NCBI GenBank assembly: GCA_030141605.1
Contig: JAQGDQ010000346.1
Span: forward strand, 101,742 to 165,741
DNA from: Tubiluchus corallicola
Lineage: Eukaryota; Animalia; Priapulida
Direction: 5' to 3'
Length of the DNA: 64,000 bases
The notes under the pieces are model-generated. The model saw nothing but the letters and a program-made list of their open reading frames with translations. It was not told the origin of the DNA and made no database searches. Made by a program: the position numbers and the translations under genes. Shown one piece after another: positions 2,326-47,639 of this stretch. The stretch's first letter is position 1. Each line of letters opens with the position of its first letter.

Positions 2326-4072
2326 TCATCCAATGGTAATCTTACTTGCGTGTTTTTACAGAAATTTACATTCTAACACCTACTATAGTGACTTCGTATT
2401 TCTATAGTGTTTGTAGGCCAATAAATTTCTGTGCTAATGTTGCTAAGGAGTGTTTTTGGCCTTTTCAACTTTACAATTATTTTCAACTTGAATATAATTG
2501 TAAACCGAAACGGTCATCGCAATTGTAAATATAAATAATAATAGAAACAGAAAAGGGGTCTTTCTATGTTTTAATGCCTGATTTTATCCATGATCATCAT
2601 ATGCCCATCGTGTCTGGGCAGGTAGAATTCTAAAATAAAAGAAGTCTGGACTCAAGACAGGCAAACAGTAACACACTAGACGCTGCCATGCCAGCGGCTT
2701 GTCAATAATCATAATTGTGCTTTAACCTAGAAGTTTCCTTCGCAGTTGGACACGTTGCACCATCTACCGACAAAAACTAAAAATTGTCTTATACTGCGTT
2801 TTAGCAAGAAGCGCCTATCCTAACATTAAAATTATTTCTTCCGCACAACTTCACGTACTGAAAAAGGGAATTATTAGTGTTTCTTGGTGAAAGTATGCGT
2901 AAACTTTGTTTCAACGCTTCACAGTAAAGCGAGTAGCTATGATCCCATTGAGTTTGTTGATTTGAAGTGGGTAACTAATGACTCTGTGGAATGACTCTGC
3001 TACTTTATCTCTTATACAAAACAGGCTCACTGTTTCATTTTATGAGAACAAAGCGATAAAAATTAGACCAGACGCCCTCGTCATAAACTGATGACATTAC
3101 CTACTGCCTGTCACCGCAACTGCTACCACCATTACTATCAGCACTACAACCACAACGCCTAAGGTTAATCATTTTCTCAATACGATTCATGATTCACCAT
3201 TTATTTTTGAGCGCATTAACTGCTCATGGCCTTTTTAATTATTACTTCTGTGCAAAACGTTACCTGAAAGTGATTCATTCGATAATATTGTCCGCAAGAG
3301 TACTTTATAGAATTAATGTATCATCTTACGATGAGAATCGTGATAAACGTAAGCAAGAATCGGATACTCTAACAAGTGCAAATACAGCGATTAAGTATCT
3401 ATCCAGACGCTCGATTTAGTAACGTACTTACGAAATTGCAAAACGTACTAAAGACCTTTGGTGTAACTAAAAGAAAAAATCAAGTTTGGCTTGTATACTA
3501 CACTTTTATTTTAACAACACCGTATAACAACAAAATTCATAACACTACAGAAAGTAAAAAATTGAGCATTTCGGTGTAGCTATAACCTTTAATAAAACTT
3601 CATACCACTTCATTATCTTAAATACGTCTAATTAGTGTAATTGACTGAACATGTATGGCAACTGTTGACTCTGTCATGAATAGTGAAATAAAATCTTAAA
3701 GAAAAAACCAATTTATTAAAAAGGAAATAAAAATATGCATCGATTAAATTTAAAAATTAAACTTTTCAATTTATCAAAAGCTCAGTCTAATTCTTTTAAA
3801 AACTTACAAATATACATTAGTTTAGTTTTGCACTTTAAGTGCTCGGCTTCAGAAAATGCCACTTAATTAACTTACAGTTAAGCTAATGGATAAAAAAATT
3901 AATTTAATTTGACCACAAAATAAAATCAATGTATTGTATGTATGGACAGATAGGAATAATACTGAAATTATTTAATAAACCTGGGCAAACTGTTGGCTGT
4001 CTGTTTACTGACTTGACTTTTAATGTCGGTCCGTTTTCTCATTTTTTTAAACTACCATAAAATATTGTTCTG

Positions 4073-7000
4073 TCAGCTGCTTAATTCTCCCATTCGCCGC
4101 CGTGTGGCAGCACGCATCTTCTCGTGAATTTCTTTTCCCATGCCTGGCTGAGTTCTGAAACGGAACTGGACATCGTCTCTTCCATGTACAGCTTTGAACG
4201 AGAACATTACAGGTCTTGAACCAAACCTGGAATTTGGAAAAAATGTTAATGTCCCTTTTGACCAAAACTTGCCAATGTGTGTAACATAACAAGATGCTCT
4301 GACATCACAAAAAATTGATTAAAAGTACATCCTGCAAGATTCTGGGTAACAAAATGTGCCAAAAATTAGTGACTTACTCTCTTATGTTCTCGTAGCGCCA
4401 TCTGTTGAGCACGTGTGAAGAATCGTCTGTAGGTGTAAGCAAAACTTCTTGATGTCCGATATGGAATACATATTCCTTGCCAGGCTGTATATTTGGGGTA
4501 GTTTTCAACCCGTCTGTTTCGATGGGCTGTATAATGAATGACGAAGACATGCCTGAAAAATAGTATCTCATAAAGCTATAGTAAGTTGCTAAGATTGTCA
4601 TTGTTTTAACAAGTTTATTTATTGGTATGTTAAACATTTGACTGGTTTTTAGAGTTATTAATTAGTAGCTATTCGGATGGCATGCTACATGATTGGATTG
4701 TTGACCTGCTTCTTCAAATAGCCAGTCAATTCTGTCAGCTCGTTTAGCTAGGAGTTTGAGGTTAGATTATTAGTTGGTCACAACACTGATCAGTGTAAGT
4801 GAACTCATTTCTGGAATTTTGCTTACGTTGCCACATTCGATGCACATTACTGACTTTTTACAGCCACCTCAGTTTTTATTTTTTGAGTAGTTGTGCAGCA
4901 GGGTTATAACAGACTGATTAGATGAATGTATTTTGTGTGAATGCTTGTGGTTACCTGAGTTCAATACTCACTCTGGGTGCTTTCATTAACCACATTGATT
5001 CTGCATCATTCTAACTGTTTACCTCGTACAGGGACATGGCATTCCCATCCAAACGTGGCTGAGACATGGTTACCAATTCAGTGGAGCATCCTAAAGGATA
5101 TCCTTCACAATGAGTTATGTTCCATCACGCCACAAATGTCGGCTTGAACAGGCCATTGTTCAATCCTGCATTCCAGTTTGTACTGTGTCGAAATGTGTAA
5201 AAAAATTCAACAAATGAAAAAGTGACATTTTAAAAAACATCAAAATCTCCTTACTTTCCTGTGTTTTTACGGCTGGCTGTTCACCGCTTCCCTGAAAAAC
5301 AGTTGAGTAGTGTGGGACCTTTACCGGTGTCCTGTTATACGGTGCAACTTGAGGAACACCACCAGCAGTTCGGCCAACATAGATGACCTCGACTAGTGAC
5401 CCAGGTGCTTCTTCATGAATGGCATTGACAAGCTCTTTCACGTGGGTTGTAACAATGGTTTTTGGATGAACGATAAACTGTTCAATGACACCAAAGGTCC
5501 TGTTAACATAAAGGAAAAAAAATGAATTAATAAAATATAATGAAATTTGCAGTTACTACATAAAGGCAATATTATCAGTGTGAATTCTCATTTAATAATT
5601 TGAAGCTAATAACCGTTTGTGCAGTTAAGCAGTGTTTTCATACCACAAAATGGCTAGATAAGTTTTTTTTTGAATAAATATAATTTATTTACATTTCATT
5701 AAGTACACAAAATACAAAACACAATTAAAATTACATGATTAAAATGAATAATTTTAGATGAGTCTGCGCGATATTATATGAAATGTAGGGGATGATGAAG
5801 TGAAAGACTGATAGAGTCAGTCCCCTATCAGATTAGTTGAATGAGCTCAGATTATTAAAATTATTTTCACAAATTATTTCATCTAGTAATAAAAAGGAGA
5901 TGAGTATGAGCTTATTTAACTTTCTATTCTGAGAAAAATACATCTTTTATTTTATACACGGGTATTAGACTTTTATATATTATTTATTGCTTGATAACAA
6001 CTACCTGCCCAACTTATTTTAGTACTGCCTTTTTAAGTGTTCCGCTGCTAGTCTGTCTTTGTTGTTCGATAAATCGCATCCTTTACACTTTTACACAGCT
6101 TTGCTATAATTACAAGCTTGGACAATATTATGCTGTTTAGTGTGGCCAGGATAGTGAGGATACATCATATTATACGACTTTTTCAATATGCAGCTAAAAT
6201 ATAGGTAACAGTTTAATTATGAAAGGCAAAATTTCCGTATCTACAGAAGGGTACGGTATTTCATATCACACGGGGTCTAAAGTGTGATGGGACAGTGGCA
6301 ATAAGAATCATTTTCCCAATATGATGTAATGTCAGAAATGAAGGCAAACCTTTGCTAAGCTATCGAGAAATAGCTAATTTTAGTGTAACTCTCACTATAC
6401 GTTGCTACTTGAATTGTTTTAGTCTATTCATTTTTCTTTTTTGTTCAACCTTTTGTTCACTTGTTTGCTTCATTGTAAATTTGTTCAATTGTTTGCTTCA
6501 TTGTAAATTTGTTCACCATTTTTCTATCTATCTATTTTTCAATTGCTCAATTATTCATTTGTTCGTTCGTTCGTTCGTTCGTCCGTTCATTCATCCATTT
6601 ATTCATTCATTTATGGTGAATAACGTGATATTGTTAATACCTAACATCTTCTAACACTAGTAAGCAGTCAGCATTATTCAGGAAGACGTTTCGCAAAAAC
6701 TTCCGTCCTTCCTCCAACGTCTCCGGCTGTTTATGGTGAAACTGATACCTGTAACATTATCGGAAATAAGCTTAGGGATTGCCACATACTACACAAACTG
6801 TACTAAATACCACAAATAGAATGGCACTTTAGCACTCAGTAAAGCATCGACCCCTCCAAAGCCTGCGAAGTACAATATTAATTTGATTAAACAATGCAGC
6901 CTCATAAGTGAAGACGTCACCAATTGTATTGACGTCATCTCATTAATGACGTGTACACATGCTTTTGTAACTTTTTGTACAGCGCTCTACTGTGATGTCA

Positions 7001-9012
7001 CCTAGCATTTTCCCGCACACAGGTTATAGTTAACCAATGAGAATTGTTTCTTTCGCACTCTTCGTGGTTTGAAAGAACTCTCATTTGTCTCACGACTCAC
7101 CCCTGCACAAGGTTTCGCTGAAAGTCATTTTTGTGTAATTCTGTTGATAAACTAACAAATAAATAAGTAAACAAACAGATGTGCTGAAAATGTATATAAC
7201 CTCTTGGAGGAGATAATAACTAGAAGTAGGGTTGAACCTATTACTCAAACTGATTCAATAAGTGACAAGGACTTTGACGATTTCTAACAGGATGCAGCAT
7301 ACATGTTTGCATTCAAAGTCATGCGATGTTTTTAGCATAGCAGAGCATTAGGATGACACTGTCTACAAAAGTAACTGTGTTCATACCTTTCATCCATTCT
7401 GGTTAGCAAGGACTTCAATTTTAAATACAGTTCACCTTCGTCCGCTGCCTTTTCCATTTTCTGCCAGATTATATCTGTTGGAAATTGTTGCACATCATGC
7501 CAGAAGTTTTGCACCCTCAAAGCAGCTGCCAACAGTTCGCTCTCAGATGTGGTATCACTATCTCCATAAATTAACAAAAATCCTGGTGTTTTTCTGTTCC
7601 TTAAATTGTGTATGGACGCGACTATTTTTAAGAGGAGAGCTTGTACCTCTGGAGGTGGGCTGCTTAATACTGCCGGTGGAACAGGAACTCTCCCCCTTTC
7701 TAGAATGCTTCCGGCACTATCATTGGTCGGTTTTGCAGAATCTCTTAAACTCGTTTCTGCTTGAAATTTCGCAGCAAGTTCATCCATGTTGACTGCCTCC
7801 GTGTCCAGTAATTGAACTGCATCGTTTTTTATTGCCTGATACGTTTTTTCCACTTTGGTTGCTAAATCAGGCATCCCAATAACTTCAGGCGTCTTCAACG
7901 CCTCCAAAAACTTGTAATAGGCACGATTGTCCCTAGTTACTAAGATATCTATCAGTTTAGACGCTTTGTCATAGGGCGTTTTCTGAAAAAAGGAGAAAAG
8001 TTTTTAGAAAAACTTAACAATCAAGGTAGAAACACGCTAAAATGACAAGGGATGCGTTCAAAACTCAAACAAATTAAAAGATTAGGGCGTCAGGTATTAG
8101 GGTCAGTGATCTCTGACGCTTTCTCTGTTAGATGTCTCCCAGGGTTGATTAGAATAGGTTTATTTTGATTCATCAGACATACAAAAGCTGCCTGGTGAAC
8201 ATATGCTTGCACACATTTAGCAAATAAATTCTTGAAAGCAAACCGAAATGATCAAATATGTAAAGTCATAGTATGTATTCACAAAGTTCATTTTTATAGT
8301 ACCGCTAATTTATTTATTGCATTTTAACTTGCTCCAAAAAGTCCTCATTAACCCCGTATTCATGTAATAAGTGCTAGATCATGACTTTGAGTAGTTTTAC
8401 CCTTTGAGAGATTTCATAGAAAAATTCTCAAATTTCCTAGAACGTTAATAGTTAAAAGAACGACGTTTAATCAAGAAAAAACTAACATACAAATAGCAAC
8501 ACGATTTGCTTCGAATGTTTTGACCTTTCGGCATCAAAAATTTAATTGTAATATAGTAATCATTGTAAGCATCCTGCATTGTAAATTTGTAATACGTGTG
8601 CTTGCAAGGTGTTTTCTATATTACTGCATCGTGGTGATGTTTTAACGTCTGAACAGTCGAAATAAATCGTGTTACTAATTGTGTGGATGCTGGTGTTTTC
8701 TTAGCAGCTTTATACCGCCCACTTGTTACGTAAAGTACGCTACATTCGAAGTGTTGTAACATCTAACATTTTAATTAACATATAATTAGTAAATTAATCA
8801 AAATTTTGATCTGGTAAGACGGGGAAGGTAAAGTCCCATGTAGTACAAGCCGCTAAAATGTATGTTACCTCAATATGAATTGCGTCCTGATCGCTTCTGG
8901 TCAAGATGTTCTCTTGAAGAAGGAACGACACAGTTGAGGGAAGGCATGGTCGAATTCTGCTGACAATTTCAGCTCGGTGGCCATTAATGGCCTGTTCTTT
9001 CTGCTCTTCCAT
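4073..9012 (-). CDS. Apaf-1-like CARD + degenerate NB-ARC NBD + IRS-type PTB domain protein (~473 aa, 6 coding exons)
   Basis: Exons 8869-9012, 7387-7982, 6641-6748, 5255-5499, 4378-4552, 4073-4226. All introns are GT-AG with matching phases (0,2,2,1,2), total 1422 nt, no internal stop. CARD: MEEQKEQAINGHRAEIVSRI...FLLQENILT...KASKLIDILVTRDNRAYYKFLEAL. NBD: ILERGRVPVPP...GFLLIYG...LYLKLKSLLTRMD...LEEGRKFLR...LLVLEDV...KTIVTTH. PTB: RWRYENIREFGSRPVMFSFKA...FRFRTQPGMGKEIHEKM. Minus-strand AATAAA near 3712. Confidence 0.85.
6555..6612. repeat. (TTCG)n/(TTCA)n microsatellite
   Basis: Tetranucleotide runs visible directly; intronic. Confidence 0.85.
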
Positions 9013-10439
9013 CCTACGTGGTTGTCTCTAAATGAAATGCAAATAATGAAGTTTTGATACATGTAGCATACTGCTAAACTTGGGTGGTATTTAACAGAAG
9101 CGAAACTTTTTGGTCCAGACTAACAGTTAGTCATGGTAACCACTACAATATCCAGTAGCAAATATGTTATAGGCCTAGCACAGTTTATTAAAATATCAAA
9201 TGCATATAATAATTAATTTCGCATATTTACTGCTTATCTTGCCTAACTGTTTCTACTTGTTTATATTTATTACATAATAATAAGCAAGCCGCGTGATCTA
9301 GCATTATGAGCAGGTATTACATTTCACCATTTGAAAGAATTTGTCTGTTGTATAACAGTTAGCACGTCTTATACGCTATGATTAGAAGATCCATCAAGTT
9401 GCTGGGTTAATGACCTCAAAACGAAATTTTCTCCTTCGTCAATGTCCATTTTGGCAACAACATCAAATTTCAGAAAATCAGCTCTCTGCGGGCTGGAATT
9501 GGAACCATTCATCTTCAGAGCACTAAGTCACAATAGTAGCGGAAAGAAAACTTAACATCTAGGATCAATCACCAATGCCTAAGGAACGAAACTAGATTAC
9601 TAGATGTTGTTTGAGGCTAATTGTAGGCCAGTAATTTTTTGGTAGAGATTGTAAGAATTAGGGCAACCATTTCCAGGTCATTAATTAGATGGTTTTTCAA
9701 AGACATTAGTATTTATTAATTACGCCGAAAAGTGAAGACGAATGTTTAAACTTTTTCCTACATTCTTTTCATTTTGTTTTCAAAACAACTCGTAAAATGC
9801 GGCAAGGAGCGGTAATCCCGCGCGCGACTGGCTAAACAAACAAGCAAAACCAGTAAATAATCACAGGCAAACCATTGAACTTTGAAGCAAGTGGGATATC
9901 CTTCACTACATTCGTATTATTGGGTGGACGCCACTGTGTACAATATCGACTCCCTCCTCTGCGTAAACTTAATAATAACCATTTTAGTTCACCCAACACT
10001 CTTTTTTGTTTCAGAACTCCCTCACCAATTCGATTTCCAATTTTCTTTGCAGCTAATCGGTCAACAACGTTCGTCTTGAGGTATACTCTCACTCAATACT
10101 TAAGATTTTTAGTCTACATTTTAACTTCTTTCTGGTTAATTCTGCTACCATGCTGTTTCCAAAGCAGAAGTGTAAAATCACCGCATGACTGTAATATGTT
10201 TGTTTATTGAACCACCATTACATACATTACATTACAAACAAATAAACAAGACAGATTTAATCAACAGTGAAACAGCGTTTACTAGAGACAAAATCCCTAT
10301 ACAAAGGAACATTGTGGTTCGAGCGTACAGAACAAATCACAATAAATTCATACAAGTATTAAAAATAATAATTATCACGGCAATGTTACATAAGGTAGTA
10401 TTAACAACTGTCTACGCAAATGTATCTAGATTTCATATT

Positions 10440-10860
10440 GACAATAAATGATTCCAAGTTTGAAAGGCTGATTCCAGAAAAACTACAATAAACTTGCATA
10501 AATGGATATCTTGACTACTCATTATAAAGACAAATTTATCATTGTCATTTGGTATGGCAGAGAACTCAGGGAACAAATTTTCAATATTATTAAAAAGTGT
10601 CAATCTATCATAATGGACGTTTCATAAGTAAGTGCATATTATCTTGAATTTGGTTAAAGTCACAATAATTACAAATTGGCTCACGTGCAAAGTTTATGGT
10701 ACCGGCCAGATTCAATATTAACTATATACATGTAATCCGTATTATAGAAAGAGCGTAGTATACATAATGTGAAATCGCTTGCTGTGAACTTATGAAACCA
10801 AGTTTCTCCACCAAAAGCTCATAAATCGTAGATTTCGCAACCATGTTGTCATTCGCTTCT
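10440..10860 (-). mobile_element. Non-LTR retrotransposon (LINE) ORF2 C-terminal relic
   Basis: Frameshifted fragments ALSIIRIT / ESGRYHKL / PICNYCDFNQIQDNMHLLMKRPL / LFPEFSAIPNDNDKFVFIMSSQD match the 'L.IETGRY...IC..C...EDE.HFL..CP.Y' zinc-knuckle tail of LINE ORF2. Confidence 0.6.
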
Positions 10861-11930: not shown

Positions 11931-14900
11931 GCTTTGCAAACATTAACACGTTCTAGATTACAAATATTACAATATGTGACAATGATAAAAAGTTGAGCAA
12001 GAAACCTGTATATACAGCATATTAAAACCTGCATTAAAACAACCTAAAGAAAATCGTGTACTCCGTGTTACAGAAACGTACAGAGAATGTAATAAATGTT
12101 ATTCAGACCTGCATGATTCTGTCTTGTTCATATATATGTCATACACGGTTACACTAAATAAGTTAATCCAAATTTTGCAATTCGCTATTTCATCCTTTTG
12201 ATATGTGCACGAATGTTTTTTGCAAACTAAATCATACGTTTCTCTCAATCTACACTGAAGCGCGCATGTGTGTCAGTCTGACGTAATAATGCGGGTAAAC
12301 GTGCCGATCCTGGGTATTAATTAACACTATAAAATATTACACAGAACGACAATAAATTAAATGGCAAAGAACGTTTGCACAGTGCTGCTGCTGTGTGTAT
12401 AAAAGCATTCTCGAAAACACGTGCTTTGCTGTGCAGGCATGCACTTTATGCAGAGCTGTTAATAAGGCAGCAAAATTTGAAGCAGCATGTGGAGAGAGAT
12501 AAACTAAATATAGAAAATGCCGCAATGAAGCCTAAAGCAATGCCAGTGTGTGTGAAATTTGACGTTAAACTAGCTACAGGTTCAAGACCTTGGGACTCGA
12601 AATCGCCTTCCGGTCAATACAGGCGACAAAACGGAAACTGAAACTCAGAATGAAGCCACAAGCTTGTCCTGCATAATTGTACTGATGTAATAGCAAGTGT
12701 CTGAATTGCCTGAATAAACGGGCAGTTTTTGATGGCCTACATCTATATTTAGAAGAAAATGTCACACATTACTGCAGACTAAACCTCAAATATTAGAATA
12801 CTGTATGCTGGTGTGCTAGTTGTATACGCTATACCGTAAGGGGAAATAACACCTTACAATACATCCCGATTCCTGATTTTAATTTGCTAACATACGGAAA
12901 TGGAAACTTACAGTCGAAATCTACGTTAAATCTAAAACATGTAGCACTAATTGTGCTTATTCATAGTCTGGTTTCGAATTAAATAGTATTAATGTAATAC
13001 AATGAAGCATTGTACTTTTTATTTTATTTATACCTATTGTTAACACGCCAGCAGTAAGTAACTCTATTCAGAGTTACACCGAGTTCTGATTGTAAATTCT
13101 GCATGTAATAATGATCGCTGGATTGCATGTGCCTGGGTAATTTATTATCACGAATATCATACCATCAGTCCATTGATTAACTGCTTTAATGATATATACT
13201 TACCATAGAATCGGAATGTTACCATATTTTGTTATACTGCGAGATTAAATACTAAACTGCAGGTAAAGGTTATTACAACTTCACTTGAGCTAGGAACGGT
13301 ATATTAAAAAACTTTCACTACAAGTATTACATATTTAAATTCGCAAAAAAACACTTACTTTTAGGCTAGATTCACTTTAATTGAAAAAATACACGTAGAA
13401 AAACAAAATCGAGTAGAATTCACTGTATTTTAGTTCAGTATGCATGTTCGTTTACCCATGAATGTCCTTGTACGTTTACAACTCAGGGCTGAGCCATGAA
13501 TTCTAATATCCTTTACCACCATATGTGACTAAACTTGGTAATAGGCGCACCTTGAGCTAAGGGATGTGGGCGGGGCTTGATTGTGACGTGTACGCACAGG
13601 CATTTTCAAAGAGAACCGGATCCCAGGTACCACTCTGCGTCAGAATTCTTCAAGCTGCCCAAAGTTCATGCTACATTGACCAGCGAAAAATTCCTTTCAT
13701 GAGCGTCGACGCCGCAACTCTGGACTGAGTTTAAAATGAAGTACATGTATGTCCCTGTTATACATAAATACAATGTTGTACACGCACAAATTAAGTGAGC
13801 TTTTTATAATGAACTGAGAAACACGCTACACACAGCTTATTGCAAGAATTATACCAAGGGCCTGATTATCCAATAGGCTTATGGCCCCTCAAACTTAGGG
13901 ATCCCTCTAGCTTTAGTAACATTTGGTAAAAAAATCTGTTTTTACTACGGTTGTGTAAGTTTATTTGCAAAAAAATCGTAAAATGGCTGTATTTCTTAAA
14001 GAATTATTTTACTGTCAAGCGAAAGAGAGCCTGTTCTACTTTGTTTCAAGAATTTGCAATAAGTTTACTTCAAGATACGTAAATGTCGCTAAAATATATC
14101 ACGAGTAAAAAATATTCAAAATGGGTGCAGGCGAGGTAGAGGACGGAATCGTCTATGACGCACCTGTCTACCAACCAACTGATGCGTCGACCAGTTGTGG
14201 ACATTGTTGCGCCTGATACAATTGACCGTCAGTTTGTATTTTTGTGTCATCATCATTTACGTTGCTTTTATGTTCTAAAACATGGCACTTTCCACCATTG
14301 ACGCCAAGCAATCCTATCTACCGTCACCGCCCCCGATGCATCATCCCTCAAATCTAGAGTTGTATATGCTAACTCTTTTTGTGGTATATCTACACACGTC
14401 AGTAACTGACCTCCTCTCGGCTGTTGTTTCAAGAGGTTTATGTAATATTATAAGAAGAGGAGATTGTTAATGTACTCTTAGTGCATGCGCAAGCCGATGT
14501 CGTCTTCTTACTTGGATTTGTTTACTCCAAGGGTTTTTTCACCACATCATACAGATCATCATTGGATTAACTGTCAAGCCACTTAACGCCTTACAGTTTT
14601 TATAGAGACGTCATTTTTTCTGCTAACATAAATTAAACATTGTGTAATATATATCAAATGTTTAAAATGTTTGTAATTTTAGGCGTATTTTTATACGTTT
14701 TAGCACTCTACAAACCGAGATTCAAGCCCTACCGATTACTTTGACAAAACTAAATCCTAGCCAATTGACAAAGGATATACCACCAAGTTTACGAAGAAAT
14801 ATTAAGATGTTTTAGCTAGATTTAGATGCGAAGTCTCAAATCGGAGTAATTTTCTACACGTAAAATAACTAGCAAATATAGAACAAAGTCAAATAATTAT

Positions 14901-15878: not shown

Positions 15879-18800
15879 ATGCCACTCTTGCTGATACCTC
15901 GTTTTCGTGAAATTTCTGTAGCTTTCAAATTTGGAAGATTTTTCCTATCTGGTAACTATGGCAGTAAAGTCAATTACTCAGCTTTTAAAGGAAGCTTCCC
16001 ACGGAAAACTCATCATCAAGCAGGATCAAAGATAAAAACGCCTACTTCGGAAACGTTCCCAGGGAAGAGATGCGCATCTACGACGATAACGGCAAAGGCA
16101 GAGCGTGTTTATGAGGAGGCAAAACCTTTTCGTGAGATTCCTGCCGCACCTGGATTGCCACTTGTTGGCAGTTTATTCTCAGGCAAGTCTTCCTGTTTGC
16201 AAACAATATAATTATTATTATTATTATCAAAGATTAATTAGTTAGTTCAAGGCATTCCTAAGCGTATATTTGTCTACGTAACCTTGAAATAAAGTATTTT
16301 GCGAGGCGTGGTAAACTCAAAAGGTTTGTTATTGAGTCTGCGTAAGATCTTTTTGAAATATGAAATATACATTGTATCAAGACTCATTTTTTTAATTTGC
16401 TAGCTTGAAGTTTAGTCGCTTATTGCAGTAGTTAGGAACATATTTTGACGTACTTGCCACCCTCTGCGGTTGGCTTAATTTCACCTTTCGGTTGGTAATT
16501 TTTTTAAACAGAATTAAGTGTTCTTAAGCATCAGCACTACTCAGTGAGGTTATCAACTTCTGAAAATTGAAATATACGACAGAGGAGTGATGTGTTGTGT
16601 TGAGCCTGAGAGAGAGACAATTTTTTTCAAATTTAATCTTAAGGTACGACTCCATGTGCACATAATGCGTGATCCGTACTCATTCTATTTCAGTTTTTGA
16701 TAGGTGGAAGAAGCATGCAGTTATGTGTTGTACATGTAACGGCAGTTTTTTCACTAAATGATGATGCGTGCCATATTGTTCTCTCCCCTACAAAATGTTA
16801 TGCACCCAAAAACTGTGCTTTTTTTCCGTCGAATAGTGCAATAATAAGCTAATGCCGCACCTGTAATTATCACGCTAAAATTTCGACAGAGACATGCTTT
16901 CCAAAAATTATTGCTTGCAGTTTTCACGAATAGCGACCAAAACTGGCGAAAAGAGCGCCGTGAGGTTTGTTAATACACACAACGTTTACGGACACACGGA
17001 GCAGTCAATACGCATCATGCATTACGGATCACTCTCAGCTGATTAGTGTACTATCTTTAAAATGCTAACAATAACCATAACTTTACTAATCAAACTTTAT
17101 CTACATTTTAGCGATGAAGTATTTGAATGGTCGAATGTATCGCTACATGGATATTTTGCACGAACAGTATGGTTCTATCTACCGAATAAGGTTTCCAGGT
17201 TTGGGCTTTCTCATGATAAACGACCCAGACGATATAGCATCATTGATGAGGCAAGAAAGTGAATATCCCGAAAGAATGGAATTTACGCCATTTGTACATT
17301 ATAGAAAAATGAGAGACCTGCAGATGGGAGTTTTCTTAGCGTATGTATAGTCTACAAGCGTAGTCAGCGTTAAGACGCTCATATAAATTATTAATTTTTA
17401 GCGGAAAATAGCCTTTACATGCTAATGGTCCTTATATTTTAAATTGACGTTAAATAAAGTAAACCGTACCTTAACTGTAAGGTTATAAAATCACAAACAG
17501 TTGAAGACTTGAAGTTAGCTTGTGGTAACATTTCTTCTTGTTAATCGATGGCGCCAAGTTGTTTGCTAAAAATATCATATAGCAAAGTGTTTACATTACG
17601 TACTGTGTGAAGCAGAAAAATTACGATTGAACAGGGCGTGACTAATTAATTAATCAATTCATCTCACAATTGACAACTACTTTCCTTATAAACATAGTAT
17701 GCGGGGCTGAGCTTCGCGTTGTTACACCCCTGTAAATCAAAATGTAATAATTTTACCTGCATGAAATTCACAAATTCTATTTTCTGACTAGCAAAAAATA
17801 TTAAATACTTACCTGTTTTACCAGTGCAAAATCTATAAATTTAAGTGTGCCATGATTTCAGTGGTTGCTGGTGATAGGACAAGGTAACTCCCGCCCTCCC
17901 AGGAATTGTCGTCCGACAGTTTACTGTTTCAGGCGTAAATGTGAGGATGTGGTAACCCCTCACTGTAGACTCTTCTTTATGTCTTATGCTTAGCAGCTTT
18001 AACTTGCTTGAAAATGGAGGCTCGTACTATTTACTAATAATAAAGATTTATCAGTTTAGCTAATTACTTATTCAATTCAGTTATAGAGATGTTTTCACCC
18101 TAACAAAACACAGGTTTCAAACAGCTGGTGATTTCAATGTTTACCTTTTAATTAAACAATTACTATTTTATGTTGATTTACTATTACAATTACTATAAGA
18201 TTTTGGGCGGGTCTTATACCGCTCTTTTAACGCTCGTTAATGTCTCCCAGTCGTTTGATTCAAGTAATCTAATCTCAGAATGTGATATACGAACCGAAAC
18301 CTCGCTGGGTCAAAGCTGTGGGTCAAACCTTACAGGGGTTATGACAACTACCCTGGCGGCAAGAACCGGACGACAGAACAATATCTATTTTGAGTTACTT
18401 ATGTCTATTTTGATAACATACCAAACATTATCCAATTTGGCTTCTAGTTTCTGAAGCGAAATGAATCCAACAATTGAAAAAATCAAGGTGATCGACAAAC
18501 ATGAAATACGCTTATTATTCTGCATTCTGATTATTATTTCTGCTCGTTCATTTATTCATTCATTCATTTAATCACTCATTCCATTATTATTCTTCTTTGC
18601 AGTAATGGTGAAGAATGGCACAGGCAGCGCAGAGTGGTGAATAAATACCTATTGAAACCAGCTAACATCAGCTCTTATACTACTGTCCTGAACAAAACTG
18701 CCAAACAGCTGGTAAAAAATATGACGCATGGGCAGTCACTAGAAGGACATGGCGAATTTGTGCCCAATGTCCAAGAGCACCTGTTCCGATGGTCACTAGA

Positions 18801-21800
18801 ATGTAAATACTTAATAATTTCTTTGAACCCAGTGCACAAAACTTTCTATTCTGCACAGAAAATTGAAGCAGCTACCGATCCTCCTTATACCTCATTTAAT
18901 TGCAGACTTGCATGCAAGACTTAAGTCAAGATTACGACAAATGAAAATGCACAGTTTTAGTTTTGCTTTATAATCTTGACTTGTTTTTATTTGCAAATCT
19001 CTAATCATTCAAAAATTCATTATTAATATCGCTTCATAGTTTCTCGTGATCATACTTTTTTTATTAAAATTATTTCTGCCATTAATTATCCTCTTTTAGC
19101 ATGAGAGAGCTATAAAAATATCAATTTTGTTTTAGCACTTTGCGCGGTGTTGTACGATAAGGAACTCGGTTGTCTTGCTGAAGGTTTAGACAGAGAAACT
19201 GAAGCTTTCATCTTCAACACACGCGAGCTGCTCACACATTCAGAGAAACTGTTTATGCTACCCATGCGTTTGTCCAAACTGTTCTACAGGAAGCATTACA
19301 AACGATTTGTGAAAGCAATGGATGTCGCGTTTGCAATAGGTAACGTACAAGATGCATTGTGAGAAACATGTGATTAACTTTCACTTACTTATTTTAAAAT
19401 GGTTACTCAGACAGTCAAATTAAAGTAATTTGCTTAACCTATACACTAACAGCCAAAAGGGTTCATCCCTTACGCAATTTCTTTATTGGGCAGCCATGAA
19501 AATCTGCTCTTTGCTACGGCTAAGAAAGTATGCTTCTTTACTAATTGCCATAAAAGTATGTATACTGTCTACCAACTGCCAATAAAGTCCATTCATTACC
19601 AATAGCACTGGTAGTCTGCTCTTTACCGCCCATGAAAGTCTGCTTTTTACCAACAATATGAAAGTTTGCTCTTTAGCAACTCGCACGAATATCTGCTCTT
19701 TCCAGCACATATGAAAGTCTGCTCTTTACTAACACCTATGAAACCTGCTCTACTAACACCCGTGCTAATCTACTTTTTGCCACCCACGACAGGCCGCTTT
19801 TACCTACACCCAAGAAAGTTTATGGTTTACCAACACGCTCAAATTTATCTTAGCTCAAGGTTACCTATTGGGAAGTATACGCCGTGCCAATAGAGAATAA
19901 TGGAGAATGTCACTTTTATTGTTCAAAATTCAGATTTAGTTAATAAGAAATACCATTTCAATTTGTAAGTTTACTCTCTTTATGAAGAATAAACATTTTT
20001 AGCTAAGAAGCATATCGATGAAAAAATGGACGATGTGATAGACAAAGCGTTCAAGTCGAAAGAAGCGAGTGGTATATTAGCATTTCTTGTAAAGGAAGAG
20101 CTACCAACTGAAGAAGTGTATGCAACAGTAACCGATCTCATGACAGCTGGTGTGGATACGGTAAGAGCAGCTCCATCTCATGTGACGATACTGAGTTATT
20201 GTAGTTATGCGTTCCAATATAAGTAACATAACTCGGATGTTGATATAAGTAATAACAATGCGGTTTATTAATAAAATATTACAATAATAAACGTAGTATA
20301 TGTATAAACGTGGCAACAAGGATTATGAGTTCTGCCGCCACCACCAGATTGCGCGTGACTGATTCTTAAGTCGTTGCGTGACGTCATATTTACGTCACGT
20401 GTTTTGGGAAGGGGTTCCAGCATTAATTTGAGTCTTAGACATGCTCATTTAACGTTTAAATTTGTTAACATGGTTTCAGGCAAAACGTCGTGATTATGTT
20501 ACTGCTCATTCACAGTTCGATCGTATCTAAAACGGTTAAAACTCTATTAACATTTCCTGAAACTTCCTGATTAAAGCAGTACGTTCAATAAAATTTTTCT
20601 GCTACGTGTATTTAATAAAATTGTTTTGCTGGTACTTCCTCGCTCTCTCTCCGCCTGTACAACAAGCCAAAGCAGGACGGCTATAATAGCAACATGGCAA
20701 GTTAATACGGAAGATTACTTCCACAATTAAACAAGGTGGAAACAGAAAAACAAAACCAAAGTACAAAATCGTTGAAAGTGGCACAAATGTAGTGATGCGT
20801 TCCAGTATAAGTAACATAACTTGATGTTGATATAAGTAATAACATTGCGGTTTATTAATAAAATATTATAAGTGTAGTGTACGTACAAGCTTGGCAACAA
20901 GAATGAGGATTTCTGCAGCCACCACCGTATTGGGTGTATGACTAACACTTAAGTACTTGCGTGACGTCACGTGTTTTTGGAAAGGGGTTCTTATTACATT
21001 ATTTTACAATAATAAAAGAACCAAGTCTTCAGTAACCACAATATTAACGCTATTTATTTTACTCAGTAGACATTTATTAAATTACTGCGTAATTACTTTT
21101 CCAAAATAGCGTACATTTTTATTCGACGCTTATTTAATTAATATATTCGTTCGAGGTTCTGAACTAGAGTTTTTTAACCTTTTTTACACTCAGACGTAAA
21201 TAGTATTAATTTGGTAAATTTTGAGTTTTTTAGTGTATTATTCTAGTTGTGTTGTTTTCTCAGTTAATGCTGCTGTATGAATTTCGTGAACTTTCAGACT
21301 TTGACAGGCTAAATAGCTGAGAAACACCAACAAGGAAACAAAGAAAAAGCTTAATTAATGTTAAACCCTAGTTTGTTTTCTCACCAAGTTTCAAGGTTTC
21401 CCCACATTATCGGCTTCGGGAAGCCACTTCATGCTACATCAAAGTTTTTGTACATTGCTAGACATCAACGTCAGTGCAGTGGATCCTGCACATGCTTTCC
21501 AAACATCCAGAAGTTCAAGCAGAAGTTCATAAAGAACTGTTAAGCGTTCTGCCAGCAGATGGCGACAGTGATGTGACAAGCGAACATCTGCAGAATCTAC
21601 CGTATTTGCGTGCTGTAGTAAAAGAAACCCAGCGGTAAGTTGAGAGAGAGAAAGAGAAAGAGGGGGGGTGAGATAGAAAGCAAAATAAATAAAGAGAGAA
21701 AGAGCAAGAGGGAAAGGGAGAGAGAGAAAGGAGAAAGACGTAGAGAGAGAGAGAGAGAGGGGAGAAGAGCAAAAAAGTGGGAAAGAGACAGAGAAAATGA

Positions 21801-42479: not shown

Positions 42480-45130
42480 GTGATCTAACCGGGAAAGTTT
42501 ATCAGTTAAAAGACATACTAAAATTGTTTCGGAATTGAGTGGTTATCAAAATTTGGGTACAGTTAGTGTAGTTGGTGTTAGTGGTAGCAAACTTTCTTCT
42601 TCTGTGTGTTTAAGAGGTTATTATAGTGGTCAGAAGATAGATAATTATCTTGTTAAGAGAGGTGCAGATAAGTTGGGTGCAGTGCAGTAGATCAGACTGA
42701 AAAGTTAAAAGGGACTTGGCAGGTGAGGCCCAAACATTATAACTTTAGTAGGGAGTGTTTAGCTTTTTTAGATAAGCAGTCTCCTGATTTGAAGGATGTG
42801 CATCCGAGTTGTTTGGTTTATTTAGTTCGGCAGATAAAGACATCAGATTACTAATAGCTCGTTTTCATGGTATTTTGCATAAGATGGAGACACTGGGTGG
42901 CATTCATATGAAGGTTTCTTCTTTTAGTATATTAAAGGAGATATAAAGAAGAAGTTCTAGTATATTAAAACAAGCAGAGGAGTACATTACACTATACTAC
43001 ACTATACTATACTACCAAGCTATTCTAAAATTTTGTGTTAAACTATACTGTGGGAGGCTTTTTGGCTTTGTTTTAAAGTTTGTTTTTTGTGGGTTTTTTA
43101 AAAGATTTTATTGGTTATTTTAATTTATTTTTAATTAGATTTGTACTTTAATTTGTACGATTTGCATTATATTTGGTCTTTAGTTCGTGTTTGTTTTTGT
43201 GTGACCTTTTTTATTGTTTTAATTTTGCATAAAGCTTTTGTTTGAGGTATGGCTGATGAAATTGGTGATTAAATTTGTTTGATTGCTTAAGAATTTTTGC
43301 TTTTTTCTTAAATGATCTTAAATACTTCTTAGTGATTTTTTGCTAGACTATTTGATTGTTTTAATTTTTGCATGTATGCTGACCTTAAAGGAATCTGTAG
43401 AGACTGCTTCGTTAAAGTATATTTTACGTTTGTTAAATATATGGAAAAAGCATACAAGGGTGGAGATATTGAGGTATTTAAATCATCCGGATTTAGCGAA
43501 AACTGCAAAGATAGAGATTACAAATATTTTATTTAGGTTAGATAGGGAGATAAGTAGAATTAAGCATTATGGGCTAAGCACTCTAAAGGGTTCTACAGTT
43601 TATTGAACATCTGAGATTATTAATGGTTTGAAGAAATTGGCTAGGCGTAATGGTTTAGTTATTCGTACAGCTATTAAGAATTGTGGTTTTTCAGTAAATA
43701 CTTTGGAGTATTATCGTAGGGAGTATGATCGTCATCTTTCTCAATCTTGTTATGAAACGTGTAGCTTGAAGGCGGCTCAGGTCTTAGGGGAATGTAAGAG
43801 TCGTGTTGAGTTTTCTGTTCGAACGTATATTGCTCGGATTAAGGGTATCAAAATTTATATAGATGTTTCTGGCAGGGACGTTTATTTACCTAAAGTGACT
43901 GAGGTTGCTGCAGTACTACGTTCAGAAAGAAGTTGTAGTGTTCCATATATGGTTTTATTGCCCAAAGTTCATAAATTAATGTATAGTTCTCCAGAGACTG
44001 AGTTCCAGCTGAAGTGTAGGCCCATTATTACTGGCTATGATGCGGTGAATTTGGAGTTAAGTGAATTAGTTGGTAAGAAGTTAGACAAGATAAATGAGGC
44101 ATTGCTTGAGAGGATGCAGTCTGAATTTTTGGGGTACGGACTCTTGTTACAAATCGTTCTAGGGCGGCTGCTGTTTTGAAAACTTTGGATATTTCGCTTC
44201 GTTTAGCAATAGTGGAGTTTGACTTTGCTGAATAATATACTAATGTGAGCCATTTTGATGTATGTTCTAGCGTCAAGTCAAGTTTGCTTAAGTTTGTGTT
44301 GATTTTTATGGTATAGAGTCTTTTTTGCTTGTTTTAGATGAATCCATAGATCAGAATTATTTTAGGGTGGGGGATTATATCTATAGGCACGTTTCAGGTT
44401 TATTTATGGGTTCTAAGAGCTCATATTTATGGGCAGCTGTCAATAATGTTTTGATATTTTCTGAGTATAGGTTGTATAAGGATCAGTCAAGTTTAATGAG
44501 TAATGTTAAGTTCTTTAAGAGGTATGCGGACGATGGTTTAGCTTCGGTTCTTTTTGATTATCTTTTGATGTTTTTGGATATTATTAAGCAATACTATTCT
44601 GGAAGTTTGTCTTTAGAGATGAAAGTGGGATTCGATCGTGCTGTATTCCTGGATTTGGAGTTACGTTTGTCAGGTACTAGGAGAAGGAGGGCATTGATTT
44701 ATACGCATGTGAAGTCTCAAAATCCTATGGTTTATTTGCATTATGACTCAAATCATCCTGATTTTGTCTTTAAAGGTTTATGTCTTACGGAAAATGTGAG
44801 GTGAGGAATGATCGTATTTGTAATGATTATGTAGAGTTTCAGCATAGGATAGAGGTCTTTTCTTCGTATTTGCGATGCCTGGGTTATCCTGCTTCTGTTA
44901 TTCGCTCTCATGTAGGGAAAGTTGGTAATATTCGGACTGCTTCATCGCCGAGAGTTCATAATGGTGGTTTTAGGGTGTTCTATACTTGTTTGTTTGATGC
45001 TGTTACAGGAATGTCGTCCATGGTTAGTCGCATGCTAAGGTTGAAAGGGGTTATGCATGCTAATTCCGTAAAAGGTAAATTGCGAAATGTTTTATTTCAA
45101 AAGGCATCTTTTATAAGAGCTTTGGACTAT
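42480..45130 (+). mobile_element. Degenerate Penelope-like retroelement (RT ORF broken by stops and frameshifts)
   Basis: Ordered PLE RT motifs across 43340-45130: LVIRTAIKNCG, LLPKVHK, CRPIITG, FDFAE*YTNV, NYFRVGDYIYRHVSGLFMGSKSS, KRYADDG, FLDLEL, YLHYDSNHP...FKG, RICND, GYP. 42480-42980 has the same G/T-rich coding-like composition, so the 5' boundary is inferred. Confidence 0.85.
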
Positions 45131-47639
45131 AGGCCTACTTCACGTCTGCAACGAAATTTCCCAGAACTAGGTTATCACGACTACAATGAAATTTTCTAGA
45201 ACTGAATAGTTTATCACAACTGCAACGAAACTGCTCAGAACTTACTTCTCACTTGAGCCTTAGATTAAGGTTACTGTGGTCACTGGTGTAGGGGTGTGAG
45301 GCAGCTGTTTTTGCTGATGACTGCCTAAATTTTTTCGTGACTGTCCATTTCACCGAGAATGGATGGTCACCTGTCTGGTAGTTGTTTAGTGGTAACTTGT
45401 AACAATCAAATGCAACAAGTGGGCTACAATACAGTTTCACATACTTCCTGTGGTAATTTATCACTTGTGAAATTTGGTTGTAGGAGTTATATTAATAATT
45501 CACACTTACTTTAGAAGCACCTGCCTCGTTCCCACTTTCCTGCCATTGGTTATGGTTAATTTATATTTGACAGCGGGGGCTCTTAATAAATGCTAAAATG
45601 AGTGCATAAATTGCGCACACCATAATCAGCTGATCCAAATATCATGCTGCTATTACTGTGTTCATGAATGACTGAGTGATGAACACTTCACGTTTCTTGG
45701 AACCAGTTTTGTCAAAAGCAGTCACATTTTTTTGTTTTTCCACCCTCTACAACTTTTATTATAAAAGCCGAGTATCGTGTTGAATGGCAAAAGTACTACC
45801 AGACACCGATACTTCACAGGTGATTTGCTCTTCTTCTCCTGTTACCCCTTTTTCTCCTTCCCTCCCGCTGTGTTAGCGCTTGCCTACTTAAAGAACAGCA
45901 TCTAGTTCAAATATTGAAGCGCCTTAGTTTGCTTACAAAACCGAATTTTACTCCCAAATTGAGACACTGTGTATGGAGTGCCCTTAGGGGTGTTTACTAC
46001 ATTGTCAGATTTTGGCTTGGTCTTTGAAGAGCTTAGAAAAAATACTCATGGAGACATTATATTAACTTTCATATGTCCAAGAGGACAGCGACTGACCAAA
46101 CTATTTGGCCGTTTGTCATTCATCTAAGTACTAAACTGATAAAGCAGTGGTTAACTTTGGTTTCAACTTCAGGGAATCAATTGTAGGCTATCTGCTCGGC
46201 AAAGTGCATGTTTGTCTGACTTTTCAATTTCAACGTATTTATTCTCTTTACGAAATAACAGTATTCTTTTAAATATCCGTTTTGCCTTCTGGCGAGCTTT
46301 GGGGCTAAGAACATTGAGAGACAGGAAAATTATAAACTAATACAATAAAACTGAGTGTGTTTTGTGTGAGCTTGGAATGTATATTTACGGGTTAGTGTTA
46401 TTAGCTTGAGCGATGTTGTTCGGCTAACACCTAATACAGTTGGAACTGTGTGAGTTGAGTGAAAGAATTAATTGATTAACGATTTCACAAATGATTAAAA
46501 TAATGTGAATAGATTATTTTTAATATTATTTTTAATATAAATAGAATTCTTATTTATAAATGCTAATTTGATTATTGCTATTGATTAATGTTAGTGCTAA
46601 TGATCAATATCAACCGTTGGGTCCATTTATCCTTTCTGAAAATCATTTTTGCCACACTGTATAGTTTAAGCGTATTAAATTAACATAACTTGTTAGTGTT
46701 TTATTTTCTATTACTGAACCACATTCAGAGCTAATGGTATACAAGTGATACCAGTTATTGTCGAATTATGAGTTGAATAAATTAGTAACTAAAGACTCGC
46801 AAATTTATTAAAAAAGAACAAACTTTATAAGTACACTACACGTTTCTGTGATTTTAATAAAGTTTGCTTGCTTATGTAAATGTGTGAGGTGATTATATAG
46901 TAACTATTTCTTTTTACGCTCTGCAAAATTTAAGTTGCGAGAAATGTTGTTTATATGACAGGCATTTAAGCTGCACTTATGGTTCGTTGTTGGTCTAGCT
47001 TGACCGTCCAATAAAAAACGTTCACATGTTTTAAGCGACTATAAACTTTTACTTAATGTTATTATGAATCTAGCCCCTTCTAAGCAATTAAAGCATTGTT
47101 TAAAATGCATTTTGTAGTATTACGGCCTACTTCAGCATATAGAATAAACACGTCAGCCCAGGTAATTGTCTAAAATGCTTTTGTAATATTGATGCCTACT
47201 TTTGTACACGAACAAGCTGGCCAGATTGATTGTTTAAAATGCATTTTTTAATGTTCGTGCCTATTTTTGTGTAGTAAATGGACATGTAGGCCTAGGTATT
47301 CCTAGTTGTTAGCATACAATGCGTAATGGAGATGAATGTTAGCTAGCCTAGCGAATTATTATTTTTTACTTTTATTATGTACTGTTTAATTCTGTTCTGC
47401 ATTCTAAACTGGTAATGTTCAAACCTACATGAATTGAACGTGCATGGCGAAAACCAAAAAAACCTATATGATGGGCAATTGCACATAACATTTTTGCAAA
47501 TATTTTTCTTAAAATGTAATGTCACTTGTTAATAATATATAAAATTATTATACACAGAAGATGTGATAAAAAATTTATTGTTACTGGTTAAGGAAATACT
47601 GGTTAAGAAGATTTCTTTTAAAAAAATAATTGTATTATT

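Follow-up and report, generated by a model that had tools for sequence, protein, structure and literature searches.

The window, a 64-kb stretch of Tubiluchus corallicola DNA, contains on its minus strand a six-exon gene predicted to encode a CARD, a degenerate nucleotide-binding domain (pseudo-NBD), and an IRS-type PTB domain in one chain (Table 1). The fusion frame described in an earlier note was confirmed: all exons lie where that note had placed them, 5 of 5 introns are bounded by GT..AG with matching phases of 0, 2, 2, 1, and 2, and the 1422 nt translate into 473 aa with 0 internal stops. No further exons of the gene were found within the window. In a per-exon search, Pfam recognized both terminal domains as halves, with the CARD profile divided between exon 1 (profile positions 2 to 40, 16.6 bits) and exon 2 (44 to 81, 19.7 bits) and the IRS profile between exon 5 (12 to 46, 12.7 bits) and exon 6 (48 to 92, 13.4 bits), each piece being below the Pfam cutoff by itself. 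Because the CARD profile continues from exon 1 into exon 2 and the IRS profile from exon 5 into exon 6, the chain of exons is not due to chance.

Table 1. Features of the predicted CARD-pseudo-NBD-PTB gene (positions in the window)
Feature	Position	Strand	Content
CDS exons	9012-8869, 7982-7387, 6748-6641, 5499-5255, 4552-4378, 4226-4073	minus	
Probable 5' exon	12109..12234	minus	5' UTR and in-frame ATG at 12114; upstream limit approximate
Exon 1	8869..9027	minus	ATG at 9012; CARD first half, aa 1-48; phase 0
Exon 2	7387..7982	minus	CARD second half to aa 93; variable linker, aa 94-137; start of pseudo-NBD, aa 138-247; phase 2
Degenerate acidic Walker A loop	7536..7565	minus	aa 188-197, within exon 2; HMMER alignment to Apaf-1
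Exon 3	6641..6748	minus	Second ISM helix and altered Walker B (aa 276-282); phase 2
Exon 4	5255..5499	minus	Sensor I zone; last NBD strand to aa 326; variable linker; phase 1
Exon 5	4378..4552	minus	IRS-type PTB first half, from aa 369; phase 2
Exon 6	4073..4226	minus	PTB second half and stop codon
3' UTR	3971..4072	minus	ATTAAA polyadenylation-like hexamer from 3976 (hexamer scan; putative function); X2 contig extends to 3993

Contigs 90 to 97% identical to the window came from a sequencing run (X2) that is RNA by the tool's guess, and overlie parts of exons 1, 2, 3, 4, and 6 (8869-9029, 7740-7984, 7383-7644, 5332-5498, and 3993-4201). Intron 3 is spliced in one of them, which joins 5498 to 6640. 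No piece of exon 5 was among the X2 contigs listed; because the contigs are short, this missing cover is not evidence. A second run (X1) was rejected as a source of RNA because it behaves as DNA, with an X1 contig passing intron 5 unspliced. At the other end of the gene, the contig covering 8869-9029 has a loose end at 8869 consisting of 9 letters that resemble the start of exon 2 (8 of 9 equal), followed by adapter. Behind 9029, an X2 contig carries a 124-letter loose end in which 24 letters correspond to 12111-12134 with 3 mismatches (0 of 100 shuffles), the basis for a probable 5' exon with a GT donor at 12108 and an AG acceptor at 9029-9028. Its in-frame ATG would lengthen the protein by 7 residues. 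Against this placement, the loose end was not placed at 12109-12234 at 80% likeness.

The closest match to the protein is LOC106808101 of Priapulus caudatus (XP_014666159-162), a RefSeq predicted model named "uncharacterized protein." Its isoform P0005 aligns with the window model over residues 1 to 472 in one HSP (201 identities in 481 columns, 42%, E 3e-127), and the two proteins have the same length, domain order, and motif losses. In a tblastn search with the P. caudatus sequence P0001, exons 2 to 6 were matched in order by 5 HSPs (E 5e-14 for exon 5, 65% identity for exon 6), with exon 1 absent from the HSPs. Apart from its species, what distinguishes LOC106808101 is that it is uncharacterized and has a middle domain without Pfam annotation: its CARD and IRS domains, precomputed in Pfam, reach 40.6 bits (cutoff, 23.9) and 30 bits (cutoff, 22), and Pfam misses its NBD. 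The NB-ARC profile had no match at E 10 in either the window exons or the P. caudatus ortholog, so of the three profiles proposed as a check on the domains, CARD and IRS were borne out in the ortholog and NB-ARC was not. Judged from these alignments, the gene is conserved across two priapulids, and the fusion is independently predicted in P. caudatus.

Conservation differs among the parts of the protein. Between the window and P0001, identity is 52% in the NBD (96 of 185), 57 of 102 residues in the PTB, 36% in the CARD (32 of 90), and 18% in both linkers, so that conservation is lowest, among the three domains, in the CARD (Fisher P 0.014 versus the NBD). For exon 2, identity is 43% to P0001 and 37% to a further ortholog, P0002. 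The known range is these three sequences (window, P. caudatus, and P0002). A phmmer search of exon 2 against 1.84 billion representatives returned 4 matches: P0001, P0002, and a pair of proteins full of repeats (10 and 15 stretches), which were dropped as spurious. Word-based searches found nothing among longer proteins for exon 2 (0 of 3659 candidates) or for residues 1 to 330 of P0005 (0 of 5179 at E 10), and only P0001 itself among 7993 proteins near its length; these blanks are weak because human Apaf-1, a true relative, was missed. NCBIfam profiles matched 0 of 2 proteins, and none of the pattern matches from two scans of metagenomes was confirmed (0 of 81 and 0 of 186). An AlphaFold2 model of P0005 from a 5-row alignment had a pLDDT of 38 and a pTM of 0.20.

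Comparison with solved structures points to Apaf-1 as the relative of the N-terminal two domains. The six best PDB matches to the ortholog profile were all Apaf-1 (best E 6e-19), covering the CARD and NBD residues 107 to 274, and neither CED-4 nor Dark was among the 60 PDB matches listed. The NBD part matched Apaf-1 107-274 with 41.6 bits (E 7e-10), and the CARD part matched Apaf-1 at E 1e-7, ICEBERG at E 0.0014, and RIPK2, NLRC4, and CARD11 at E 0.03 to 0.8. Searched singly, exon 1 and exon 2 gave no significant PDB match; matches to designed armadillo proteins involved a short proline stretch only and were set aside. Exon 2 matched NB-ARC/STAND clusters in the Atlas at 0.78 to 0.84, values under 0.9 that serve as leads only.

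Within this Apaf-1-like region, the residues expected to handle nucleotide are altered. The lysine of the Walker A consensus GxxxxGK[S/T] (Apaf-1 Lys160) is replaced by Glu (Glu195 in the window), Gly157 by Asp or Glu, and Gly159 by Ser, with one residue extra, in 3 of 3 orthologs, leaving a nearly identical loop with 4 acidic residues per 10 in all three. In Walker B, Asp243 has become Glu280 and Asp244 is retained as Asp281, and the sensor I arginine (Arg265) is His (His302 in the window) in both orthologs that cover the position; the roles of the Walker B and sensor I residues in Apaf-1 are taken from the part of PMC5050015 used here. By sequence, the NBD is a putative pseudo-NTPase whose nucleotide-binding residues have been lost, and because the motif losses are common to the orthologs, they are old and fixed. 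These alterations, together with the missing Pfam NB-ARC match, are what a decaying Apaf-1 relic with a drifting NBD would leave. The near identity of the altered P-loop in 3 of 3 orthologs argues against drift, as do the differences between the X2 contigs and the window. Among the 40 differences listed of 91, 34 are coding, affecting 27 codons synonymously and 6 nonsynonymously (P 3e-10 versus a mutation null), and the listed changes in the pseudo-NBD comprise 21 synonymous and 2 nonsynonymous codons. The pseudo-NBD is under purifying selection, and decay is largely refuted, retaining scarcely any probability.

As the earlier note proposed, the Apaf-1-like part ends after the NBD: homology stops at Apaf-1 residue 274 and is followed by about 40 variable residues and then the PTB, with HD1 and WHD, which in apoptosome proteins complete the nucleotide pocket and the outer ring, absent and no Pfam match in the ortholog or the window exons to the WD40 sensor, a part that CED-4 also lacks. 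Compared with human and mouse Apaf-1 (PDB 1z6t, 3jbt, 5juy, and 3sfz), the priapulid protein shares a homologous CARD and NBD and differs in lacking the Walker A Lys, sensor I Arg, HD1, WHD, HD2, and WD40, in having an approximately 45-aa CARD-NBD linker and a C-terminal PTB, and in the replacement of most ring contacts. According to the portion of PMC4691890 relied on here, three quarters of the inter-subunit surface of Apaf-1 is NBD-NBD and Apaf-1 without its WHD still oligomerizes, which implies that scaffolding is possible with just an NBD. That portion names four central NBD-NBD contact pairs, and none of them is retained on both sides. Asp225, Arg233, Glu146, Gln121, and Gln257 are replaced, Glu116 has become Arg, and retention or conservative substitution is limited to Arg205 and the Thr204/Arg215/Glu222 set. 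With HD1 and WHD also gone, the label "apoptosome-like" is weak.

The C-terminal domain occupies the place of the helical and WD40 sensor domains, as had been claimed, and is an IRS-type PTB above the Pfam cutoff in the ortholog. Its sole PDB matches were DOK chains, and these were weak (E 0.16 and 0.55); in the Atlas, exon 5 matched FERM-C/IRS clusters at 0.78 to 0.86, with Myosin-X FERM-C level with IRS (0.86 and 0.86), again leads only. IRS, DOK, and FRS2 proteins consist of an N-terminal membrane anchor (PH or myristate), a PTB, and a tyrosine-rich tail. The priapulid protein has the same type of PTB (Pfam PF02174; DOK5 1j0w, DOK2 2dlw, DOK1 2v76), but at the C terminus and with a CARD at the N terminus, no PH domain, and no tyrosine-rich tail. 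We take the arginines in the LRRYG and FEAGR motifs of DOK proteins to correspond to the phosphotyrosine-holding arginines of IRS-1. In alignments with DOK5 and DOK2, the first arginine of LRRYG is kept, and the FEAGR arginine aligns to Asp in P. caudatus or His in the window, with a conserved Arg two residues further on. The IRS-1 residues concerned are Arg212 and Arg227 (PMC3507883). By this alignment, the first phosphotyrosine arginine is plainly retained and the second is doubtful, which leaves docking on phosphorylated NPxY uncertain.

The explanation we favor, tentatively and at a little under an even chance, is a one-chain adaptor made of an Apaf-1-derived CARD, a switch-dead NBD likewise derived from Apaf-1, and an IRS-type PTB; it would attach through the PTB to the tail of a membrane receptor and recruit an initiator caspase that has a CARD. 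One transcript would cross the 5255/4552 junction. Having presumably lost nucleotide binding, the protein would have neither an ADP/ATP switch nor a cytochrome c gate, and the pseudo-NBD could act as a fixed scaffold through which the protein self-associates or binds partners. The PTB would be the input, binding an NPxY-like tail with the phosphate present or not, and clustering at the receptor would activate a caspase by proximity. Caspase-9, suggested earlier as the target, is reported as deuterostome-only (PMC10959488), so an ecdysozoan partner would be of the caspase-2/Dronc/CED-3 type. The gene likely descends from a vertebrate-type Apaf-1, as a duplicated or leftover copy that was truncated behind the NBD and fused to PTB exons. 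The proposed logic is that of engineered DED-PTB/SH2 adaptors, which likewise combine a death-fold with a receptor-docking domain but are synthetic, DED/caspase-8 based, and without an NBD; with DED-PTB chimeras, tyrosine kinase signaling is redirected so that it leads to apoptosis (Howard et al. 2003, cited in the portion of PMC2575513 used here). Points against this adaptor are the unseen joint contig, the exon 4 stop with its downstream AATAAA hexamers, the status of the P. caudatus support as a predicted model, the mostly replaced ring contacts, and the single phosphotyrosine arginine clearly kept. A CARD that is the least conserved domain also fits poorly with the CARD being the main constrained output. 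The reading in the earlier note was partly supported: the architecture stands, with the same fusion in P. caudatus, and three elements need amending, the apoptosome-like label being weak, caspase-9 an improbable partner, and docking on phospho-NPxY uncertain.

A bolder form of the adaptor is a natural receptor-coupled apoptosome that discarded the switch, in which the conserved acidic residues of the P-loop would hold a permanently assembled-type scaffold and the trigger would be the PTB on activated receptor tyrosine kinases; we regard this as unlikely. Somewhat better placed, yet still rather improbable, is a nonapoptotic scaffold, in which the PTB would bind an unphosphorylated cortical or receptor partner in a FERM-F3/Dab-like mode, the CARD would recruit a CARD adaptor or kinase in immune or developmental signaling, and the pseudo-NBD would bind a new partner. 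The greater conservation of the NBD and PTB than of the CARD, the doubtful second arginine, and the Myosin-X clusters (as leads only) are consistent with this, as are Apaf-1-like proteins for which the part of PMC11747288 used here reports roles outside apoptosis, with DNA binding by the NB-ARC and NF-kB activation. Against it, the best solved relatives of the CARD are Apaf-1, far ahead of RIPK2, NLRC4, and CARD11.

Low probability also attaches to a tethered decoy that would block death for as long as a survival receptor stays active, either through a CARD that sequesters an initiator caspase or through a pseudo-NBD that caps a canonical Apaf-1 ring. ICEBERG and COP are known CARD decoys with no working switch, which this protein resembles, and ICEBERG is among the weak CARD matches. 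Growth-factor receptors bound by IRS-type PTBs usually give survival signals. The 5 Bcl-2 proteins of P. caudatus, Bax included, suggest that a mitochondrial pathway to restrain may exist (PMC8998228, in the portion drawn on). The human-type contacts needed for capping are mostly replaced, however, and no canonical priapulid Apaf-1 was found in the word-based search of 5179 candidates, which is weak evidence. Far less probable is a wrong joining, by the earlier note and an annotation pipeline alike, of two neighbors: a CARD-pseudo-NBD gene with its end at 5160 and a PTB-only gene whose start is the ATG at 4550, two bases into exon 5. No X2 contig was seen across 5255/4552 (the NBD/PTB joint) or 4378/4226, unspliced exon 4 reads through to the stop at 5160, AATAAA hexamers lie at 4880, 4623, and 4619 between exons 4 and 5, and the linker is among the 18% identical segments. 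The gap is 702 bp, however, with a good donor and acceptor in agreeing phases (the exon 4 donor at 5254 was the best among those scored), the NBD-PTB linker has 41 residues versus 39 aligned in P. caudatus in a protein 42% identical, and 3 of 3 listed P. caudatus isoforms carry the PTB in the fusion.

A literature search found no paper on a CARD-pseudo-NBD-PTB fusion. The architecture was already in RefSeq as an uncharacterized protein with Pfam CARD and IRS annotation. Apaf-1-like proteins with shuffled domains occur in amphioxus, sea urchin, and Nematostella (PMC2246300), including BbeApaf-J (PMC11747288). In the portions of these reports used here, they share with the priapulid protein an Apaf-1 core and an exchanged C-terminal sensor, with TPR or death domains, or nothing, in place of WD40; none is described there with a PTB, and the lancelet forms retain Walker A and B, whereas the priapulid NB-ARC module is reduced to a pseudo-NBD.

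What is known of cell-death control in ecdysozoans derives from flies and nematodes, and both have lost the Apaf-1 of vertebrate type (PMC2246300, in the part cited). A slowly evolving ecdysozoan lineage appears to carry a derivative of that Apaf-1 type, remodeled in a manner that did not turn up elsewhere in our searches, with the switch residues gone and the sensor swapped for a receptor-docking domain. Should the gene activate caspases, a direct death signal from receptor kinases would become possible. A receptor-coupled apoptosome, if true, would be a third initiator-caspase route beside death receptors and mitochondria, a counterpart in nature of the engineered DED-PTB chimeras, and a STAND domain that selection maintains without nucleotide. 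Even without caspase activation, the gene is a clear example from nature of selection acting on a pseudo-STAND domain, and it allows one to ask whether the Apaf-1 NBD scaffold works without nucleotide, HD1, and WHD.

Six exons on the (-) strand splice into one stop-free frame of 473 residues, as the earlier note had described. All five introns (886, 638, 1141, 702, and 151 bp) are bounded by GT..AG, with matching phases of 0, 2, 2, 1, and 2. In an exon-by-exon scan, the Pfam CARD match fell into abutting halves on exon 1 (profile positions 2 to 40) and exon 2 (44 to 81), the IRS match was divided between exon 5 (12 to 46) and exon 6 (48 to 92), and exons 3 and 4 had no Pfam match. CARD or IRS was matched by five of the eight pieces scanned, every piece singly scoring below the Pfam cut-off. 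Some 40 variable residues separate the last strand of the middle domain (NBD) from the PTB domain. A six-frame profile scan of the window returned these six exons and three chance-level matches, with no further exons of the gene.

A phmmer search with exon 2 against 1.84 billion representatives matched four proteins, two of them genuine; the other two, repeat-rich, were discarded as noise. P0001 (487 aa, 43% identity to exon 2) is an uncharacterised RefSeq prediction from the ecdysozoan Priapulus caudatus, LOC106808101, whose three listed isoform sequences differ at the N terminus only. The closest match of the window gene among the proteins found is priapulid. P0002 is a 205-aa fragment spanning only the CARD and half of the NBD, with 37% identity to exon 2 and 66% to P0005, another LOC106808101 isoform. 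P0005 aligned with the 473-aa model in a single stretch (residues 1-472 versus 1-474, 201 of 481 columns identical, E = 3e-127). Among the domain profiles suggested in the earlier note, CARD (40.6 bits) and IRS (30 bits) exceeded Pfam cut-offs in P0005, but NB-ARC gave no Pfam match. The end-to-end alignment and both Pfam domains place the same fusion in a second, distant species, in an independent (predicted) gene model. Identity to P0001 was 96/185 in the NBD, 57/102 in the PTB, 32/90 in the CARD, and 18% in both linkers.

Human Apaf-1 was the first PDB match of P0001 alone (E = 3e-11), and a profile from A4, a five-row ortholog alignment, matched it at E = 6e-19; this alignment ran in order through the CARD (28 bits) and then residues 107-274 of Apaf-1 (41.6 bits). 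With CARD and IRS in the ortholog and Apaf-1 homology of the NBD by profile, the proposed architecture of CARD, degenerate NBD, and PTB is correct; the gene is real and conserved in at least two species, and the fusion itself is held with high confidence. Apaf-1 ranked first and CED-4 and Dark were absent among the 60 PDB matches listed for A4, which points to the vertebrate-type Apaf-1 branch, reported lost from nematodes and insects in the available text of PMC2246300.

Residues expected to bind nucleotide have been replaced. In three of three orthologs, Gly157 of Walker A (human Apaf-1 numbering) is Asp or Glu, Gly159 is Ser, Lys160 is Glu, and Arg129 is Pro; the Walker A loop is longer by one residue, and 4 of its 10 positions are acidic. 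Asp244 is retained and Asp243 is Glu; in two of two orthologs, His takes the place of sensor I Arg265. The phosphate ligands of Apaf-1 are Lys160 and Arg265, and its nucleotide sits between NBD and HD1 (PMC5050015, available text). Since both ligands are replaced and HD1 is missing from the gene model, nucleotide binding has in all likelihood been lost.

According to the accessible part of PMC4691890, NBD-NBD contacts make up three quarters of the surface between Apaf-1 subunits, and Apaf-1 still oligomerises when its WHD is missing. Ring-building elements are conserved relative to P0001 (22/38 identical in the helix alpha-8 zone, 19/42 in the ISM zone). The human contacts Asp225, Arg233, Glu146, Gln121, and Gln257 are replaced, and Glu116 is Arg. 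Arg205 is retained or conservatively changed, as is the Thr204/Arg215/Glu222 set, which the available portion of PMC5050015 names. These residues lend no support to a pseudo-NBD that forms, or caps, a ring of the human kind; a re-coded self-contact is possible.

The only PDB matches of the PTB, both weak, were DOK5 (E = 0.16) and DOK2 (E = 0.55). Aligned with these DOK chains, both species retain the first LRRYG arginine and have Glu at the next position; opposite the FEAGR arginine they carry Asp or His, and both have an Arg two positions downstream. We take these DOK arginines to correspond to Arg212 and Arg227 in IRS-1 numbering. Phosphotyrosine is held by these two IRS-1 residues (PMC3507883, available text).

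Two sequencing runs with the same species label, X1 (DNA-like) and X2 (RNA-like), were compared with the window. In exons X2 differs from it by 3-10%, and X1 contigs by ~1-3%, a contrast that may point to cryptic species or to very high polymorphism. Neighboring features are listed below. The P450 gene, whose N terminus resembles that of mitochondrial-clan P450s, lies head to head with the probable 5' exon of the CARD-NBD-PTB gene, ~3.6 kb apart. To our knowledge, FAD-binding/berberine-bridge-like oxidases are uncommon in animals. The 130-aa ORF product, possibly membrane anchored, weakly resembles the centipede peptides k-Ssm1a (E = 0.034) and SSD609 (E = 0.5) in PDB, which we take to suggest a CHH/ITP-like hormone fold. 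The YADD ORFs resemble a reverse transcriptase, now broken up, from a Penelope-type element. Judged by their depth and loose ends in X1, two regions flanking the gene are probably interspersed repeats, and the 116-aa ORF probably belongs, as an exon, to a gene that leaves the window or lies close to its end.

Features neighboring the CARD-NBD-PTB gene in the window
Feature	Position	Strand	Observations
Cytochrome P450 gene	15879-19200+	+	Pfam p450 on 18547-18801; spliced in X2
FAD-binding/berberine-bridge-like oxidase gene	58348-53264	-	Pfam FAD_binding_4 and BBE above cut-off; signal-peptide-like start
Single 130-aa ORF	50067-49675	-	Signal peptide, cysteine-rich core, hydrophobic tail; no Pfam match
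Three adjoining ORFs, different frames	43607-45196	+	YADD motif; two scanned, no convincing Pfam match
Long (AG)n/(CT)n microsatellite tracts	41.4-42.2 kb, 40.3-40.9 kb		Spurious long ORFs, strong skew
High X1 depth	1500-2200, ~10240-10500		Many loose ends
116-aa ORF	62310-61963	-	Rich in Arg, Pro, Asn, Ser; no Pfam match

None of the runs recorded as RNA covers the gene; X2 was included by its species label, its RNA nature being guessed and then judged from contig behavior. Its contigs fall on exons 1, 2, 3, 4, and 6, one removes intron 3 exactly by linking 5498 with 6640, and another is spliced over introns of the adjoining P450 gene, so X2 behaves as RNA. A loose end at 8869, with 9 letters resembling the exon 2 start and then adapter, lends weak support to intron 1. 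Another, behind 9029, matches 12111-12134 (24 letters, 3 mismatches, 0/100 shuffles), where an in-frame ATG at 12114 would add 7 residues; because it found no placement at 80% likeness, a 5' exon there is only probable. No X2 contig spans 4378/4226 or the NBD/PTB joint at 5255/4552. For the latter joint this fits two separate transcripts, a reading made very unlikely by the same fusion in the independent P. caudatus model. Codon counts rest on 40 listed of 91 X2 differences, 6 in the 3' UTR and 34 in 33 codons. Among those listed, 29 of 34 coding differences occupy third positions, and 27 codons changed synonymously versus 6 non-synonymously (expected synonymous share 0.29, P = 3e-10), including 3 versus 2 in exon 6. 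The gene is alive and its middle domain is under purifying selection; a decaying relic is extremely improbable given 21 synonymous versus 2 non-synonymous listed changes in the NBD.

Tentatively, and at somewhat below even likelihood, we favor an adaptor whose PTB would dock on a receptor tail, whose nucleotide-free NBD would form a fixed scaffold, and whose CARD would bring in an initiator caspase activated by clustering. A caspase of the caspase-2/Dronc/CED-3 type would fill this role, because PMC10959488 (available text) reports caspase-9 from deuterostomes alone and the host lineage is ecdysozoan; the caspase-9 link proposed earlier would thus not apply. A scaffold for non-death signaling is rather unlikely, and a tethered decoy more so; the replaced contacts do not favor a decoy that caps a ring of the human kind. 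Equally doubtful is a receptor-coupled apoptosome. The gene derives from Apaf-1 but lacks working-switch residues and helical domains, and is therefore not classed as an apoptosome protein; of the label "apoptosome-like," descent of the CARD and NBD survives, whereas the switch, the helical domains, and most ring contacts do not. Nor is the gene one of the IRS/DOK docking proteins.

Literature searches, with subscription journals largely uncovered, found no study of CARD, IRS/PTB, and Apaf-1 combined in invertebrates; the single mention of PTB alongside Apaf-1 found concerned engineered chimeras (PMC2575513, available text). In the parts available, PMC7531772 and PMC8998228 do not mention the gene, PMC11874512 mentions neither PTB nor IRS, and the main texts of PMC10959488 and PMC11463336 name no priapulids; one PMC10959488 supplementary file gave no match, and its tables S2/S4 (Apaf-1) might include a sequence from a priapulid. 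Within the reach of these searches, the gene is unstudied. The architecture, earlier called unfamiliar, is so in this literature, but the ortholog's CARD and IRS pair already stands in automatic annotation. Amphioxus, sea urchin, and Nematostella are known to have Apaf-1-like genes with shuffled domains (PMC2246300 and PMC11747288, available text), so shuffling by itself is to be expected. What is new is a PTB joined to a cut-down, switch-dead yet conserved NBD, a variant of Apaf-1-like proteins.
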